Assembly (NCBI GenBank): GCA_003693705.1
Contig: RBZT01000705.1
Location: 62,001-126,000 of the forward strand
Source of the DNA: Polymyxa betae A26-41
Lineage: Eukaryota > Protista > Endomyxa: Phytomyxea
Direction: 5' to 3'
Length of the DNA stretch: 64,000 nt
Shown one piece after another: positions 5,380-40,640 of this stretch. How positions within the stretch are numbered: position 1 is the stretch's first letter; every line of letters begins with the position of its first letter. The position numbers and the translations under genes are program-made. The notes beneath the pieces were generated by a model, which saw only the letters and a list, made by a program, of their open reading frames with translations, ran no database searches and was not told the origin of the DNA.

Positions 5380-6481
5380 GTGATGTCGTTGTCGATAGAG
5401 CATGTTAAGGGAGAGATCGCCGAGGTCAAGGCAGACCTGACGAAGGCAAAGGCATACCTGAAGTCGGCGATGGACAATGCCCACAAAGAACTGGTTCTTG
5501 CGGCGATGTCGTTGATCACATCGCTCGAACATCGCTTGGCTGGTCTGGAGGCTTGGCTTCTGAAACCCGCCCTCGCCCCAACTGGTACGTTTGCTAATAT
5601 GTTTCACAGAATTTCGCACGCGATTATCGCTTAATGCTCGTCATTTTGATCATTATTTTAAAACAATTATGATAATATTCATTTTTTTCATTGTTATTCG
5701 ATACGAATCGCGTTTTGATTATTATTTAATACAAATCCTGCGGTTTAAAACTCATTTACAAGAAGACATTAACATGTTATGCGACGTTATCTCCAAATTG
5801 TGTTGGAATATTGGTCAGATTCCAGACGTAAAGAAAGCGAACGATGCCAAGTTCCATCCCAAGACTCGCCCGGCGTCATCTTCATCTTGGACTTCCGCTG
5901 ATCAGAGCAACTTCGTCCGCGCTGTATGCGATTATTACGGCGCTGAACACAACTTTTGCTTTGTCGCCGGTCACGTCGATCCTACCAGAATCACGGGACG
6001 GAATTCCATCGTGGCAGCTCACATCTGGGATTTCCGATGCCGAAGTGCTCTGCCAGTTTTCGGCTTGGCAAAAGATGATGTTTGGAATCCTAAAAACGGG
6101 TTACGTGTTTGCAAGCCGATTAAGAAAGCGTTTGACGCTGGACGGGTCGTTCTAATCTACAATCCCTTTAACAGAAAAATCAACATGCACGTGTTGGACC
6201 CCCAGCTGAAAAATCAGTTGGCCTTACCGTCAGACAAAACGTTCGACGATCTCGACGGCGCGGTCGTAACTTTTCCCAACGGCAATAAGCCATATGTTCG
6301 CCTGATTGCTTATTTGGCTGCCGACGGGATCCGAATGGCATTGGAGAAGAATTGGGTGAAGGCGGGAGATTATGAAGCGTACAGGCAATGGTACGACCTC
6401 GAATTATCCAGTATCGGGAAGGACGAACTGGCCAAGATTGAAAGCAACATTTTTTCTGACATTGATGCCTTTGATGTCTAA
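5380..6481 (+). CDS. helical header plus HNH_2-type endonuclease, Crinkler/CR-effector-like
   Basis: Exon 1 coiled-coil 5380-5584; AT-rich intron 5585 to about 5762; exon 2 with CFVAG...VAAHIW...VWNPKNGLRVCKPIKKAFDAG. Confidence 0.7.
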
Positions 6482-32467: not shown

Positions 32468-32830
32468 GGAAGACATTGATCAAATGATTGCGCGAATACC
32501 GCCGATCTGTCTCTCTCCAGAACTTGACGTCTGGGCTCAGACAGCGGCCGATACAGACCCCAAATCGGCCCCAAGACCCCACCAGCAACCATATCCAACT
32601 GAAGGGATCCCTCAGATCCCGTTCAGATGCGGTTGGCTTCAGCGATCGGGGGCCGGTATGACTCGGCCGATCCTTTTCGCAACTCTCTGGAATGATGTTG
32701 GGCATTGCTGGGCTCGATACGTTAACTGAACACCTCATTGCAATGTGGATGTCGAATGGTTGATCGGGCATGGAAGGGAATAGAAACCCTAATCACTGCC
32801 TGCCGGTCTTTCACCAAATTGATTGATGAT

Positions 32831-33425
32831 TGTAATGTTACTTTCTCAATTAAACTCTTCCCTCCTTATGATGTAATGTTACCTTCCTAATAATCCCTTC
32901 CATCGTAAATAATGTAATGCTAATCCGGCCATAGAGTGCATTCTGTTATTATGGTAGACGAGCTACCGGTAAGATCGCCGAAATCGTCATGTTTCGCCTG
33001 CTGGAGTGCAAACAGGACCAGAACCAGCTAAGAGTTGTACCGCTGTTCTTGCAGATTATCAAAGCAAACGATGGCAGAAAGAAGGCAGATCCCGCGGCTA
33101 CGAATCCGACGAATGGGTTGGTTAGGGTTTCAAATTTGAAACATACGCTATTTGAACGTGTATCGCCTGGACCTTGTCTACAGAAATGATTATCCTCAAG
33201 CGCTTCTATTATGAGGGTAGAGTGTATTAAAAAAGTAACATTACAGCATTAGGAAAGAAGGGTTTACAGTATTAAGAAAGTAACATTGTCCTATGGAGGG
33301 AAGCGTCTATTAAGAACGTAACATTACATCATAAGGAGGGAAGAATTTAAGAACGTAACATTATATCATAAGGAGGGAAGAATTTGTTAAGAACGTAACA
33401 TTATATCATAAGAAGGGAAGGGTTT
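32831..33425. repeat. bipartite inverted array of about 37-45 bp units (foldback/MITE-like or regulatory array)
   Basis: Unit TTAAGAACGTAACATTACATCATAAGGAGGGAAG: 5 direct copies at 33226-33425 and about 3 reverse copies at 32831-32921. Confidence 0.8.
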
Positions 33426-33507
33426 ACATACATGAGAGGTGCATATTGCGTATGTTATAGAGAGATGTGGTATCCCTCTGACCATTGATTATCATTCAGG
33501 TTCAGGA

Positions 33508-33858
33508 ATGCATCCGATCAGCTTCGCTGACCCAGACCGACATCCGCAATGGTTGTTGCCACTATGTCCTGTGTATTGAGATACTGACCATGTCCTGCAC
33601 AGCGCTGATCTGATTCGTGGTCTGGCGCGATGCCATGATGAACGCTCGGTGGCCAAGTTCTTCGGCGCCTGTAATGGTATCAAATCATTACTAGATCAAT
33701 GTGTTAAGAAAGAGGTCTTGTTACTATCTGCGGATCCATTTACCGGTCTCAGATTTATTCATTAGAAATTACCAAAACGGCAGAAGAATCTCGAGGAAGC
33801 ACGACGCTTGCGGGCGAAATGGGCTGAAACCAGAAAAACCCATGACGAGATAAGATAG
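33508..33858 (+). CDS. CMC2: COX assembly protein CMC2 (twin CX9C), 3 exons, absent from the ORF track
   Basis: Exons 33508-33551, 33603-33713 and 33766-33858 give MHPISFADPDRHPQCADLIRGLARCHDERSVAKFFGACNGIKSLLDQCVKKEKLPKRQKNLEEARR..*. Confidence 0.9.
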
Positions 33859-34005
33859 TCGATATTGAATCCAGATCTGTCTCTACTAAAGTATTCGTCC
33901 TTTGACTCTTCTTGGACACCAGCTTCGTAAACCCTAATACCCTAGCCAATCTTTGCCTACCTCGTCCAATACAAAGGTACGATGAATTCGTTTTTTTTGT
34001 ATGTT

Positions 34006-34557
34006 TTAGGATCCCAGGCTCACATGAATGAGCTGTTGAGCGCGCAAACCTCTGCGGATGGTAGTCCGCGAGCGCCCCCGGAACTGTGACTGATCCATGG
34101 CTTCGTGATGAATTGCAATGCCGACTGGGCCGGTATTTCTGCCCGCAATCCACAAAAGCCCTGGAATAAACATTCCAGGGCTAACCCCGCGACCCTCTCT
34201 TCGATATAGGCGTCGCGTGTTGGATTGTAGCCGGGCAGAAACTCCCGCAGACGCTGGCGTAGGGTCGCCAGTTCTTGGGCTTTTTTCTTTCGACAATGCC
34301 GGAAGAAGAGGCTCCAGGCTGTCGTTGTGTTCCTTGGCCGATTTGAGCTGTTTCGACAGCCTGGCGACTTTTTTAGAAGCCTTCCAGACGAGACCTGCCT
34401 CGTGAATAGCCCATAACTTGCTCGTCGCCACTGCGCTTTTGGATAACAAAACCTATAAAAATTCGTTTTTAGGGCTAGGGTTTATAACTCGGGATGCCTT
34501 CTTGTGTTGCGCTGTCCGTGGGTGCGTCAGGAGCCAGCGTCGTAGTGTGGGCGCCAT
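34006..34557 (-). CDS. putative partner ORF divergent from rep (spliced, possibly frameshifted)
   Basis: ATG 34557 (MAPTLRRWLLTHPRTAQHKKASR) joins in frame over a 36-nt GT-AG intron (34453-34488) to the 147-aa ORF; a second minus frame is also open to 34020. Confidence 0.4.
34466..34487 (+). promoter_or_regulatory. telo-box plus TATAA upstream of rep
   Basis: TTTTTAGGGCTAGGGTTTATAA ending 80 nt before ATG 34567. Confidence 0.4.
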
Positions 34558-34712
34558 TTTTAAACAATGGTTTCAATGTTTATTGACGATGAGGCGGATG
34601 CTGTCGACGTTGGCGAAGGTGTTGACGGTGAAGAAGAAGTTGTTGACGGTGAAGAAGAAGTCGATTTGGCAAAGAGGACTCGTTCGATGGTTTTCACGCT
34701 CCATGTGAACCA
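34515..34712 (+). repeat. left arm of 198-bp inverted repeat (rep leader plus first 146 nt of CDS)
   Basis: Reverse complement of 35714-35911 with one mismatch and no indel. Confidence 0.97.
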
Positions 34713-35866
34713 GGAACTGTTTTTTGCTGGAGGTTTCGCTCGGCTGCGCTCCGGTTGCCGGTGTTCCGGATCCTGAGCTGTTGGTCCAGGCGTTGCCTCA
34801 CAAATACCTGGTGTATGGTCGTGAAGTATGTCCGACGACGGGTTCGTTCCATCTACAGGGTTACGTGCAATTTCGTAACTCGATGTCGTTCCGCTCTATC
34901 CACGCCAAGCTCGCTCCGTACAAAGCATGGTTGCGCTGTGCGTACGGCACCGCTGCTTCCAATCGTCTTTACTGTTCGAAGGGTGGCGATTTCTTCGAGA
35001 GCGGACACTTTCCCAAAAACGAGAACGGATGCCGGTGGGAGAATGCTCTTGAACTCGCTCGCATGGGCAAGATCGACGACGTGGACGCTCAGACTCTGGT
35101 TCCATATGTGCGGTCCTTGGAGCGTCTTGAGGAACGACACATGTTTAATCAGGGCCTTCCGATTCTTGCTGAGTGTCGTAACGTCTGGGTGTGCGGTCCC
35201 ACACGTTGTGGGAAATCGTCTATTCTCACGCGGCTGTTCCGTTCGTGCGATGTTTACAGCAAGATTCAGAACAAAAACTGGTGCAACTACCGTCGTCAAC
35301 CGGTCGTATTAATCGACGATGTCGATTCGGATGGTTTCGGTCGTTGGGCGCTGTCGCATCTCAAGATCTGGACGGATTATAAACCATTTCCCGCTGAGCG
35401 TAAGTATGGTAATGTAAACATTCGGCCATATCATTTTATCATAACGTCGAACGAGACGCCGGAATCCGTCTTCGGTAATTCCGCTCCCGCCCATCGTGAC
35501 GCGGTCCTCAGTCGTTTCAAAGTCATTAACCTGTTCGACTGCTGTGGGAATGCGGCATTTTGCCGTTGTGCGACTCATCATCCCGCATTGTATCCCGAGG
35601 AGTCGTTGGTGCGTTTTATCAAAGAAACTGTCGCATGGTTTGCGTACGACGAGAAGAATCGAATTAATGTCCACTATCCCCCGGATGATCCGTTCTTTCG
35701 TGTCGAAGAGGATTGGTTCACATGGAGCGTGAAAACCATCGAACGAGTCCTCTTTGCCAAATCGACTTCTCCTTCACCGTCAACAACTTCTTCTTCACCG
35801 TCAACACCTTCGCCAACGTCGACAGCATCCGCCTCATCGTCAATAAACATTGAAACCATTGTTTAA
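34567..35866 (+). CDS. rep: CRESS-DNA virus-type Rep (HUH endonuclease plus SF3 helicase); motif I is +1 out of frame with the rest
   Basis: Motif I VFTLH (frame of 34567), motif II FHLQG, motif III YCSK, Walker A GPTRCGKS, Walker B VLIDDV, motif C IITSN, Arg finger AVLSRF. Confidence 0.93.
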
Positions 35867-35911
35867 AAATGGCGCCCACACTACGACGCTGGCTCCTGAC
35901 GCACCCACGGA
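35714..35911 (-). repeat. right arm of 198-bp inverted repeat (second copy of the rep 5' end)
   Basis: Minus strand re-encodes MVSMFIDDEA...VFTLHVNQ from 35859. Confidence 0.97.
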
Positions 35912-35942
35912 AAGCGCCAAAAGTGGGTTGCGCGGGGGTCGC

Positions 35943-35964
35943 GCACCCACTAATACTAGGGCGC
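35943..35964 (-). other. putative rolling-circle origin stem-loop with nonanucleotide TAGTATTAG
   Basis: Minus strand GCGCCC-TAGTATTAGT-GGGTGC (6-bp stem with one G.T pair); nonamer 35950-35958 matches TAGTATTAC at 8 of 9 positions. Confidence 0.75.
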
Positions 35965-36609
35965 TGTCATATAAAATAGGGTTGCAGGAGTCCAGGCTAT
36001 GATGGACTCCGGTTGCGTGCGCCTTTCGGCCATCGCCTGAGAGCATGTGGTTGTGCAGCTTCGCACATTCCCGGCCTTCACGATCGGGAGAGAAAGCGAA
36101 GAGAGAGTGAGAAGGTTACGTCTACGGGACCGTGGTCGAATTGTCGCTCAATTTCCTCTTTTGTTTATTTTTGTAAATCAATATTAATAACATTTACTGA
36201 TGGCTATGCTCTTAGAAAGAAAGCAGTGGGTCTAGTCATAACGCTTTACCGAAATGTTCTCGATTCGCTATCTTGTCCTGTCCCTGAAATCTTAGATCAG
36301 ATGTCACATGCTGTGGTTGCGTACTGTACGGTATGTAGAATCAATGATCTGTGATAATAGTTGCCGTTTTATTGCGATTTTCTGATGCTACGCTGTGCCT
36401 AAACTCATCAAATGCGCTCTCGTGATCAATATCAGCCATCCTGGTGACCGAGATTTCACTTTATCCACCCGTCAACGTTTTGACAAAAAAAAACATTTCA
36501 TAAATTATTCGCAGCTACAGCATGGCGGAATTTTTCTTTCGCCCAGAATCTGAACAGATTTCTGCATAGTAATAACCTATTTACACAATATCATGGAGAT
36601 AATCGTTAA

Positions 36610-39385
36610 CTATATTAATGTTGGTAGATTATTAGTTGATCTTGATCTAATAATGATCTTCTGTAATGCATTTGTTAATCTCTGTCCAGCCTTCACAACC
36701 GACATCGATTTCATGACGAACGGCAACATTCCAGATGAACAGCGCCGATATCTTCCGGGGTCTTTCAGGACCTGGGCCTGGGCCAGCTCGAACTCCAGCA
36801 CGCGGCTCGGACGGCGTGCTGGCCCGGCCGCGACAGCGGGCGGCTTCGCAAACAGCGACCTCGTCGTTGGTTTCGGCGCCGTGCGCTCGCCACTGGGCGG
36901 TAGTTCGGTCATGAACACGGAGCAGCGGTGCAGGACGTCGTCGGCGATCCGATCCAGGTCGTTCTCGACGGCGACTGCGTCGATCTGCAGATTCCATTCC
37001 GTGGCGGACGCCGACCGACGACGACGCTGTAGTCGCTGCCGCCCTGATAGACCATCATCGAATGGGGCCAGCATGGGATCCCCCAACACCCCCACGGTCG
37101 TACCATCCGTTACCGATACGAGCGTGATACTGGTGCTGTGGTACTGGCCCACGGCCAGGCACCGGATCGGTGCCAGATACCGCAGGACCCGGACGGCGTC
37201 GTTGGCGACGCGGAACTCGGCGATTCTGTTGATGTTGGAGGCGGCGGCGACGTCCAGCCCGATAACGATACCGTCGACTGTGGCCAGGTACACGTGACCG
37301 TGCGCATCATCGGCTGCGATCGCGGTCAGGGCGTGCTCGCCCACCACCTGCGATGTGGCGCGCAGACGGCATGTGCGCCGCCGCTGGGCCGGCATGACCC
37401 AGGTCTTGACGACGTTGTTCTGATCGATGGAGACCATCAGAGACGTGGTCGTCGTGATCATGGTCACGAACATGACCGCGGCGTCATGGGCGCGCTGGTT
37501 CAGTACGACGCAGGTCGAGGGCCAGATCTGCTGTACGACCAGGCGACCGTCGCTGCGTCCGGCCGCCACCCACGACCCGCAGTCCGAGACGAACACGGTG
37601 ACGGCGTCCTCGAGTCCGTCCACGAACACGGCCTGGTTCAGTACGGCATCGCCGGCCGACGTACTGGTCCGATATCGGCCCGATTTCTCCACCAACACGA
37701 CCTGATCACGGCACGAACTCGCTCGAATCCATGTGGGCGGACATGCTGGCCCCGACGGTATGCTGTACACGTGAGCGTTATGATGGAGACTGTAGGCGGC
37801 CACGTTTCCGTCGGTCTGTACGATGAAGAGGGTTGCGCCCCTGCGATCGAGATCGATAGAGATGACGGATACAGATAGTGGGATACGAGATTGTAACAGA
37901 CCTGTTAGAGATGACCAGATAGTGATCAGATCGGGGTCGTGGTGCCATACAATCACACGTAATAGAGCGCTGCTGTACAGAACGTCGCAGACCGCGCCCA
38001 TCATCATCTCGTCGTCCGCGGCCGAATACTGGACCAGGTCGTCGCCATCGCCGGCCAGCACGAGACGATCGCGAAACGCGACCATGGCCGTCAGCGACCG
38101 GTTCGTTCGGATTCGCTGGACGACGAGTCAGTGGCGGACCCCTGTCACCGACTCGGGGACCAGTATTACCTGAGAACAGACGAGCTGGGTCAGATTCCAT
38201 GTCATGATACATCCGCCTATATCAGCAGTAATCATTGTATCATGTACGAATATGATAGAATGAATCTCTGTATGATGTTCTCTTGTTTGAAATAGACGAA
38301 TATTGGAGTATGGATTATATATACTGATACGTCTATCATATGTACATACTGCCAACATACAATGATTAGGAGTAAATGATATCAATGATACACCATGAGA
38401 GACATCGAACAGGATTGTGGGTGATTCTGTCACCTATAGGGGGGCTCTGAAACCCTAAAACCCTAGCCGACCATCAACCACCGACCTGTATACAATCGCG
38501 CCCATCGCGCCGATATTCCCTCATAATCCATCCACGAATAGTTCGATCAAGAGATCCAGATACGAACAGGTTCGTTGATATACTACAGATCGATGTAACC
38601 TCATCCGTATGCAGAGCGGGAATACTGGCCGACGACCACGTCAACTGCGCCTGGGCATCGTACTCGGCCATGGCCATCGACCCGTCATTGAACCCGGCCA
38701 CGATCGATCCGTTCCTCAGCGCCGCCAGCGCCGTACACGGCGTCGTGATACGGAGCGCCGACGCCGTCGTCGTCGTCGTCTGCAGCGGGATCGCCTCGAT
38801 CGTCGAGCTCGTCGCCGTCACCAACACCGCGATCGATGCGCGCGGCACCGTCATCGTGATCACGTCGTTGACGTCGCCGCGCGCCAGTACGACGTCCGCG
38901 AACTGGCGCATGGTGACGGCATCGTACAGATGCGCCCGATGACGTCCGTCGACGACGGCGATGATGGCGCCGAGGTCGGCGCTGTACAGCAGGCGTTTGG
39001 CGAGACGGCGTCCGGGGACCAGAGCCGCGCCGGGCATGCGGCGATACCGCCGCTCCGTCGGTAGACGGCGTCGCTCCTGATGCTGGTGGCCGTACAGGAC
39101 CAGGGCGTCGAGGAACTCGGCGAAATCGACGACACCGTTGTCGTTGAGGTCCATGGCCCGGAACATGGCCGCCAACGCCACGGCGCCCGGCCGCTCCTGG
39201 AACCAGGCCAGGCCGTGCAGGCGGGCCAGCAGGGCCTGGACGAATTCGGCCTGGGTCACGCCCGGGCCGAGCCGCCCGGCCAGCTGGTCCAATACGTCGC
39301 GGTCGATGGTCAGGACGATCTGCTGGATCAGGTCGTCGACGCCCTGCAGACGCCTGTACAGGCGCGTCCGGGGCGTCGCTGGCAT
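36610..39385 (-). CDS. EF-hand plus WD40-repeat protein (WDR49/EFCAB8-like), multi-exon
   Basis: EF-hand FRAMDLNDNGVVDFAEFL; WD repeats LHTDEVTSI..FVSGSLDRTIRGW and EHHTEIHSI..ITADIGGCIMTWNL. Confidence 0.8.
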
Positions 39386-39551
39386 CGCTAGCCAGGGGGC
39401 GGGTACGCCTTCTTCGCCGCGAATCTCACTGCCGCATTGCAACGATCACAGTCGGGATTTCTGGGGTCAAGGGGCCAGTTCGACGTGTTGTTGGACCGGC
39501 TGACCCTGAACGGTGTTCGGGTACGATCGGCAGTGACGATCGGGACGGTGA

Positions 39552-40225
39552 ATGTCGGACCTGGCTCGGGAGCTTCGACGTCTCTATGCGGATGTGAAAT
39601 CGTGGGCGCCATCGGATCACGAAGGCAGACCGCAGACACCATTTCAGGAACATGTTGGAGATGCGCCGGCTGGGTTGAAGATGGCGCTGACCTGTGGATA
39701 GGAGTCGAGACCGAGGTCGCCGCCAGGGGAGAATGTCTCGCAGCTGACGACATCGGTCTTGCAGATGTTCGAAACACGATGTCGATCTATGGAGGAGCGT
39801 ATTGCGACTCTGGAAAAGAGAGAGTTGGATCTATTCGAGGCATTTGACCCTGATTTGTGACATTTTATTCATACGATGAATATCGCTATCTAGGAACTAG
39901 AACGCCGAATATCATCCAGATTTCAATCTATGGCTGATCATCAGAATAATATCAAGGATGTATTATGTGGTGAATTCAACAGATTAGATGGACTTATTCG
40001 ACGAAGGTGGCGATGGATTTCTAGAATGATTTGTTTGCTGAGAATGTGATTAGTGAACATGATCATAGCCGAATGCATCATGATCTTTATGATGGGCAAC
40101 AGATTCGTATTCAGCAACAGATACGGCATAATACTGATATGATCAATGTTGTCGATGAAGAGGTTCGACAGGTTAAGAGGCGTCTCACGGAGGCTCTTGA
40201 ATTATTCAATAGAAAATGGAATTGA
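39552..40225 (+). CDS. putative multi-exon coiled-coil protein
   Basis: Short exons can be joined to MEERIATLEKR|ELERRISSRF..|EHDHSR..VDEEVRQVKRRLTEALELFNRKWN*; first junction unresolved. Confidence 0.45.
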
Positions 40226-40254
40226 TTGTTTGATAATATAATAACCGCTTTCAC

Positions 40255-40640
40255 GTGTGTTTGGATGGTATTGGTATGGATGACGTTTGTATTGATGACA
40301 TTTGTATTGATGAGATCTGTATGGATGAGATATTTGAGATGACTGGATGAGATGTTGTTTTGTATGGATGAGATTTGTATGGATGAGATGTTGTTTTGTA
40401 TGGATGAGATTTGTATGGATGAGATTTGTATGGATGAAAAATGTTTGTTTTGTAATGATGGCATTTGTTTGTATTGGAAGGATGAGCTATTATTGATGAC
40501 ATTTGTATTGACGAGATTTGTACATATGGATGAGATTTTTCTGTTGTATTGATGGCATTTGTATAGATGAGATTTGTATGGATGAGATGTTTGTAATTTG
40601 AAGGGATGAGCCATCATTTGTATGGAGGACATTTGTATGG
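40255..40640. repeat. degenerate 15-bp minisatellite (ATTTGTATGGATGAG)n
   Basis: Many direct copies, with longer variants such as GATGAGATGTTGTTTTGTATG. Confidence 0.9.

Follow-up and report, generated by a model that had tools for sequence, protein, structure and literature searches.

The stretch analysed here (the window, 64 kb) carries, among host genes, a gene for a Rep protein of the kind found in CRESS-DNA viruses. The locus raises the question of whether such a gene is the relic of a virus, a mobile element, a working gene of the host or a product of assembly. We conclude that the window rep is probably a recently endogenised, frameshifted and 3'-truncated fragment of an unclassified CRESS-DNA virus infecting the host lineage. 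The host stretch is gene-dense and eukaryotic, with short introns and telo-boxes. Host RNA appears in runs labelled as other organisms, which suits an intracellular parasite, perhaps a plasmodiophorid. Ten host frames were absent from the protein collection, one host protein had a single unnamed match (29%), and the Atlas matches were generic BEACH clusters. Of 24 runs listed, eight were examined by their contigs; X1 is a possible source of the DNA, which leaves at least one independent study. X3, X7, X11 and X12 are termed RNA-like because they contain spliced host introns, not by their records.

The rep gene

The motifs named in the preliminary description are all located on the + strand of the window. 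They are FTLH (motif I, 34693-34704), HLQG (HUQ motif II, 34850-34861), YCSK (motif III, 34970-34981), Walker A GPTRCGKS (35195-35218), Walker B VLIDD (35306-35320, described before as IDD), motif C TSN (35444-35452) and the arginine finger SRF (35510-35518). The extra Cys/His cluster CCGNAAFCRCATHH (35540-35581), located behind SRF, is real too and characterises a small group, 8 of the 249 Reps compared. The gene had also been described as intact and without internal stops, which is not the case. ATG 34567 and FTLH are in one ORF (34564-34776) and HLQG to SRF in another (34709-35866); the frame of motif I stops at 34774-34776, and the 3' end is truncated at 35713.

34567..34776, + strand: first rep frame, 69 codons, with motif I; stop TGA at 34774-34776
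34713..34732, + strand: frame break, at or adjoining the six-T run 34720-34725, between motifs I and II
34709..35713, + strand: second rep frame, stop-free, with HUQ motif II, motif III, oligomerisation helices and SF3 helicase (Walker A, B, C, Arg finger)
35540..35706, + strand: clade-specific C-terminal domain, with a C-x-CxC-x2-(H/C) cluster at 35540-35581, then YP, a helix and W

Against Pfam, the main rep frame matches Viral_Rep (E=6e-9) and RNA_helicase (SF3; E=1e-7), each exceeding the cut-off. The AlphaFold model of 34781-35713 has a mean pLDDT of 93.6, and the PDB structures it matches are the Reps of PCV2 and vientovirus. The fusion of an HUH/HUQ endonuclease to an SF3 helicase, a feature of Cressdnaviricota Reps (Arfiviricetes type), is present, with motif I out of frame in the window copy. 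The Cys/His cluster of the C-terminal domain is a predicted zinc site. An acidic N-terminal motif, FIDDEA / FVDDVA, is common to the window Rep (34567-34600) and the N-terminus of the protein P0145.

The DNA contigs of X1 and X2 both match the break region (34683-34849) with 0 differences and 0 gaps, and the frame break is therefore not an assembly error. In the relative L001, motifs I and II are in one frame, with spacing equal to that of the window and 79% identity just behind the break, and an X2 paralog contig over 34515-34849 has a 1-base gap at the T run; both observations point to a slip private to the window copy.

Inverted repeat and origin-like stem-loop

Rep is accompanied by an inverted repeat (34509-34712 / 35714-35917; 204 nt, 99% alike) that the preliminary description did not report. 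The two arms differ at two sites, 34514 and 34655.

34476..34482, + strand: TAGGGTT, the left copy of a 7-nt direct repeat around the element, either a candidate target duplication or a host telo-box
34509..34712, + strand: left arm, with rep 5' UTR, ATG 34567, acidic N-terminus and motif I
35714..35917, - strand: right arm, a backward copy of the rep 5' end, which cuts the rep frame at 35713 and provides AATAAA at 35842 on the + strand
35922..35951, - strand: predicted G+C-rich hairpin separating the origin from the 5' UTR (-14.1 kcal/mol, DNA parameters)
35943..35964, - strand: origin-like stem-loop, 6-bp stem, nonanucleotide TAGTATTAG at 35958-35950
35965..35975, no strand: stretch where the similarity to the second genomic copy stops, at TATAAA (35970-35975); the 8.4-kb X1 and X2 contigs diverge behind 35975
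35977..35983, + strand: TAGGGTT, right member of the direct repeat, candidate target duplication or host telo-box

An X12 contig of 486 nt is 92% alike over 35582-35706 and then continues with a different coding sequence, which shows that the window copy is cut there. A second feature of Cressdnaviricota Rep genes, a nonanucleotide stem-loop origin, is predicted to adjoin the rep 5' end; the stem is short. The nonanucleotide fits the NANTANTAN pattern given in PMC7468197. The 64 kb contain 23 NANTATTA[CG] sites, of which one other has a stem of this kind. The TAGTATTAG stem-loop is located outside the right arm; on the minus strand, its reading direction leads to the ATG of that arm. The origin is thus oriented like the right arm and opposite to the rep body.

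Because origin and rep body face opposite ways here and are in line in the second copy, a flip or a mis-orientation is proposed: the inner 1 kb would be reversed in the real chromosome, or would flip between the arms. We hold this as a tentative possibility, which concerns orientation only and is compatible with a viral fragment. In an X7 contig, position 34514 of the left flank is followed by 35911 on the opposite strand, from where the contig continues to 35516, and reversal would give origin and rep the common orientation that they have in the second copy. However, this is one RNA-like contig of depth 4, its joint contains 140 identical letters, and two transcripts fused as a chimera in the assembly graph would yield such a piece as well; the 204-nt repeat is beyond phasing by DNA contigs.

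TAGGGTT occurs at 12 sites in the 64-kb window. Three element junctions are at or within 30 nt of this host telo-box (34476-34482, 35977-35983 and, in the second copy, behind 35348), an observation made post hoc. The telo-box at the junctions may be a target duplication or may merely reflect insertion in promoters.

Further copies of rep

At least two more rep copies, diverged and with different flanks, appear to be present in the same DNA runs, when pieces are joined into copies by overlap; the copy number refers to contigs matching this stretch, not to the whole genome. No second rep copy is located within the 64-kb window. The second copy consists of 8.4-kb contigs of X1 and X2 that end in origin and arm, with pieces over 34515-34849 and 34825-35348, the latter with 61 differences in 524 (88% alike). 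Its origin and rep are in line, its rep frame is kept without splicing, and the likeness ends at 35348, at a telo-box-like loose end. The third copy is alike only in a 37-nt core (35249-35285), with rep-coding loose ends in X1, X2, X3 and X16. Overall, the copies are 88-92% alike and truncated at different places (35348 vs 35713). With the window copy, there are at least three differently flanked copies, and the number is low.

Substitutions among the copies are mostly synonymous (22 of the 24 scored), and 22 are at third positions (p=4e-9 vs 1/3), in line with selection. The scored set was drawn from 40 of 101 listed differences, 16 of which are in aligned coding sequence, together with the 8 rep rows among 17 in a second set; differences in the gapped acidic tract (10), the right arm or UTR (10) and the flanks (4) were dropped. 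As nearly all scored differences are synonymous, we infer that the copies diverged while coding and broke only afterwards.

Relatives and the question of a capsid

Among 1.84 billion representatives, 7,992 proteins match. For three of them, P0008-P0010 (42-45%), the match reaches the frame's end; for most of the rest it breaks off near residue 250. P0008 and P0009 come from contigs of 5.3-5.4 kb and P0145 from one of 4.1 kb. A FastTree of 249 Reps places the window Rep with P0008-P0010 and L001/P0159 (6 rows, support 0.994; L001 and P0159 are one protein), and adding P0012 and P0145 gives 8 rows with support 0.816. A loose Cys motif behind the Arg finger is found in exactly those eight, and three Cys are invariant in 6/6 aligned rows. 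IQ-TREE on 39 hand-picked rows (262 core columns) gives a 7-row group an SH-aLRT of 92, the tool's mark being 95. No member of the clade has an informative name, and neither the IMG/VR scans nor GTDB gave a relative of the window Rep. The best BFVD matches of the Rep model are 25-36% alike; of four named ones looked up, three are Adamaviridae (25-28%) and one is unclassified, with no Draupnirviridae assignment among the four. The C-terminal domain alone had 0 BFVD matches at E<=0.001, with a weak query model (pLDDT 69.8). The host link for an unassigned CRESS clade that had been suggested is supported by the chromosomal joints described below and by the position of the Rep in a small clade that has no named member.

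The L001 protein is 47% identical to the window Rep over 302 aa. Behind HLQG, its rep is interrupted by an AT-rich GT-AG intron of 53 nt. Both L001 and L002 have two overlapping frames and an intron behind rep, the frames being 60-64% and 47% alike. These two overlapping spliced small genes (L001 1480-1950 / L002 764-1279) are conserved in both frames across the metagenomic contigs, and another, Arg-rich frame begins at the end of L002. Over the 0.5-1 kb examined behind rep in L001 and L002, no frame has a Pfam match or a capsid-like look.

In the window, about 600 nt are free on each side of rep, where the longest frames (153 and 124 aa) have no Pfam or PHROG match. The statement that no capsid ORF lies between CMC2 and the WD40 gene stands insofar as Pfam and PHROG found none, and it is weakened as a library test by a control, the capsid-like frame of L003, which matched neither.

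Viral fragment or self-copying element

The relatives are compact, with overlapping frames and introns behind rep, which favours the viral reading. Other observations count against it. No capsid is tied to the clade in the sequences read, the downstream genes of L001 and L002 not being capsid-like. In addition, the likeness of two copies ends at a common point near 35975, which is 24 nt beyond the predicted nick and would not be expected from random capture.

Alternatively, the clade may be a capsid-less self-copying element with an SF3 helicase (a rolling-circle transposon, plasmid or satellite), of which the window would hold a dead and rearranged copy; we consider this reading rather unlikely. 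It would agree with the presence of three or more copies at separate sites that diverged under selection, with the common origin-side end and the 7-nt direct repeat on both sides, and with relatives that have host-sized introns, show no capsid in the 0.5-1 kb behind rep and have no counterpart in IMG/VR. However, the copies are few, their other ends differ (35348 vs 35713), and the shared end is off the nick site. The direct repeat is the common telo-box of the host, found post hoc, and the inverted repeat is coding sequence with no dedicated terminus. The overlapping reading frames of the relatives suit a virus, and the nearest named Reps come from viruses, the cruciviruses and Adamaviridae. 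Where an active DNA transposon (TIR or rolling-circle) would have an intact mobilising enzyme, the window has a frame break and a 3' truncation. As to near-identical copies with shared ends, the contigs give 88-92% likeness, one end common to two copies and others that differ. The earlier proposal of an SF3-bearing rolling-circle transposon or satellite thus finds little in its favour in the few, variously truncated copies, and neither an empty-site joint (skipping the element) nor a circular joint is listed in the eight runs, most of which are RNA-like or shallow.

A bolder form of this proposal would make the Cys-domain clade a capsid-less, intron-bearing rolling-circle family with an SF3 helicase, a new zinc-binding Rep domain and small overlapping accessory genes, which inserts at telo-box promoters of protist hosts; the window would hold a dead, possibly invertible copy. 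This is quite unlikely. If true, the family would form an extant link from CRESS viruses to the HUH transposons of eukaryotes.

Transcription and coding capacity

RNA-like pieces cover only the rep 3' end and the right arm, at 35492-35849 (X3), 35516-35911 (X7) and 35683-35834 (X11), in three studies. The lack of RNA cover on other parts of rep is no evidence of their silence. As contigs are strandless, the 3'-end RNA fits either a sense RNA ending at AATAAA 35842 or an antisense RNA from a promoter beside the origin.

The window copy might be functional or co-opted, either by splicing of a 28-nt intron (34705-34732) to give a near-complete Rep or through the short RNA of the right arm acting as an antisense antiviral RNA. 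We regard this as very unlikely. The 28-nt stretch is GT..AG and 3n+1 long, such that splicing would restore the rep frame, 311 codons are stop-free, and crucivirus Reps are reported to be spliced in 36 cases (PMC7468197). The 3'-end RNA contigs come from three studies, and the inner sequence is identical in X1 and X2 although the flanks differ in X1. However, host introns in the region are 51, 51, 54 and 62 nt, longer than 28 nt. In L001 the stretch is conserved at the protein level (VNQ, with changes at third positions), and the frame of the second copy is continuous without splicing. In the eight runs examined no RNA contig crosses 34705-34732. In X3 the WD40 transcript (1.6 kb, similar depth) is fully covered, whereas rep pieces of the window's own copy are listed only from 35492. 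The absence of stops is expected in a young insert, and the contigs give no strand. A spliced intron in place of a slip at the break has low odds, and the window locus would make no full Rep.

Several further features were noted around the element. The stretch 35999-36493 is covered by RNA-like contigs of X3, X7 and X11 and by a piece of X13, and begins about 25 nt behind TATAAA 35970; it has no long frame and no Rfam match. Its part 36334-36373 has a look-alike elsewhere, and X1 and X13 have a small insertion at 36011. A transcribed frame (34020-34483) with a paralog elsewhere (34136-34240, 9 differences) is located on the minus strand between CMC2 and the left arm. This neighbour (34023-34481) matches nothing in Pfam or PHROG and nothing convincingly in the Atlas (best 0.84), does not resemble the second gene of the relatives and is not counted in the element. 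Rfam on 32500-37000 gave 2 chance matches only, and a bacterial promoter scan gave nothing exceeding shuffles. Upstream of CMC2 (32826-32922 and 33206-33426), direct and inverted repeats of about 40 nt (AACGTAACATTA core) flank a frame of 84-99 codons. A frame at 5564-6481 has an HNH_2 match and is reminiscent of Crinkler-type proteins.

Joints to the host chromosome

Both outer joints of the element are found in DNA contigs of X1 and X2, and rep is thereby tied to host flanks. At the left joint, contigs of 22,901 nt (X1) and 14,856 nt (X2) contain host genes and extend 36 nt into the left arm. At the right joint, 4.5-kb contigs of both runs connect the right arm, by way of the origin, with the WD40 gene. 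In X1 the depth is 13.9 on the left, 11.5-18.2 inside, 12.5 on the right and 26.6 on the collapsed arm; in X2 it is 202-272 on the left flank and rep and 374 on the right flank. No single contig spanning the whole element is listed, as expected with a 204-nt repeat. Rep is chromosomal, joined to host DNA at about single-copy host depth in two studies. An assembly artefact, in which a contaminating virus was joined to host sequence, could be argued from the lack of a listed contig over the whole stretch, but is largely refuted by the host-depth joints in both studies and by the broken gene, unlike that of an exogenous virus, and can be practically dismissed.

The right-flank contig of X2 (35894-40373) has about 1.8x the depth of the left flank, which is not seen in X1; a duplication in the X2 sample is possible.

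Formation of the locus and its meaning

Inverted viral DNA can arise by template switching. For the viral fragment, we envisage that viral DNA (origin, 5' UTR, rep) in rolling-circle replication would have switched template near the rep 3' end and been copied back over the viral 5' end, giving the inverted repeat; the copy-back is suggested by the geometry alone. The viral piece would then have been captured where a host promoter region was broken. Recombination between the arms may subsequently have flipped the inner 1 kb, or this part may be mis-oriented in the assembly, and a one-base homopolymer slip would have inactivated rep after capture.

Most CRESS-DNA lineages are without a known host. 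Several young, independently placed copies link an unclassified clade with a single eukaryotic host and point to recent infection; if the host is a root-parasitic protist, the viruses of such hosts are almost unstudied. As the window element is broken, a claim of transposition would have to rely on further copies. The clade brings to the CRESS repertoire a C-terminal Cys/His domain without a fold match and spliced overlapping genes. The element type itself is ordinary, and the interest is in the host pointer and the Rep variant.

Comparison with known systems

CRESS Reps in protist genomes have already been published, and PMC11945456 gives a table of families. Draupnirvirus-like Rep and Cap elements are described in Polymyxa betae and Chromera velia (PMC10193959, Kinsella 2023), and Table S4 of that paper may already list the window locus or a sister locus. 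In our literature search, with most subscription journals outside its scope, this was the only relevant paper on plasmodiophorid CRESS elements, and nothing was found on the Cys-domain Rep clade. Most endogenous Reps are degraded (PMC3198968, Liu 2011). The window locus resembles the endogenous cressdnavirus Reps of protists (PMC3198968, PMC10193959) as an HUH and SF3 fragment in a non-coding stretch, frameshifted and truncated. It differs from the published Polymyxa betae and Chromera velia elements in that its best classified fold matches are Adamaviridae and unclassified rather than Draupnirviridae, and from published protist elements in its extra Cys/His domain and the 204-nt inverted copy of its own 5' end.

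With Reps of Adamaviridae (Rohanvirales) and cruciviruses, which are the top BFVD and named sequence matches, the window Rep shares HUQ motif II, YCxK, GxxxxGKS, W-x-x-Y and ITSN. The identity is only 25-36%, however, and no named protein in the compared set joins the clade or has the Cys motif. For cruciviruses, PMC7468197 reports spliced Reps in 36 members and NANTANTAN origins, and proposes SAR hosts.

The geminivirus-like TIR transposon of Tuber melanosporum (PMC3198968; 42 copies >95% alike, 37-bp TIRs, separate transposase frames) also has a Rep-like frame between inverted repeats, but in the window the repeat is rep coding sequence, present in one copy and without a transposase. Replitrons and Helitrons likewise place an HUH endonuclease in a eukaryotic chromosome. 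Replitrons (PMC10288648) have HUQ and one Tyr, as the window Rep does, with short direct terminal repeats and no helicase, whereas the window Rep has a fused SF3 helicase. Helitrons combine a Y2 Rep with an SF1B helicase (PMC10288648), in place of which the window has a single YCSK and an SF3 helicase. The nonanucleotide stem-loop, too, sets the window element apart from both Replitrons and Helitrons as described there.
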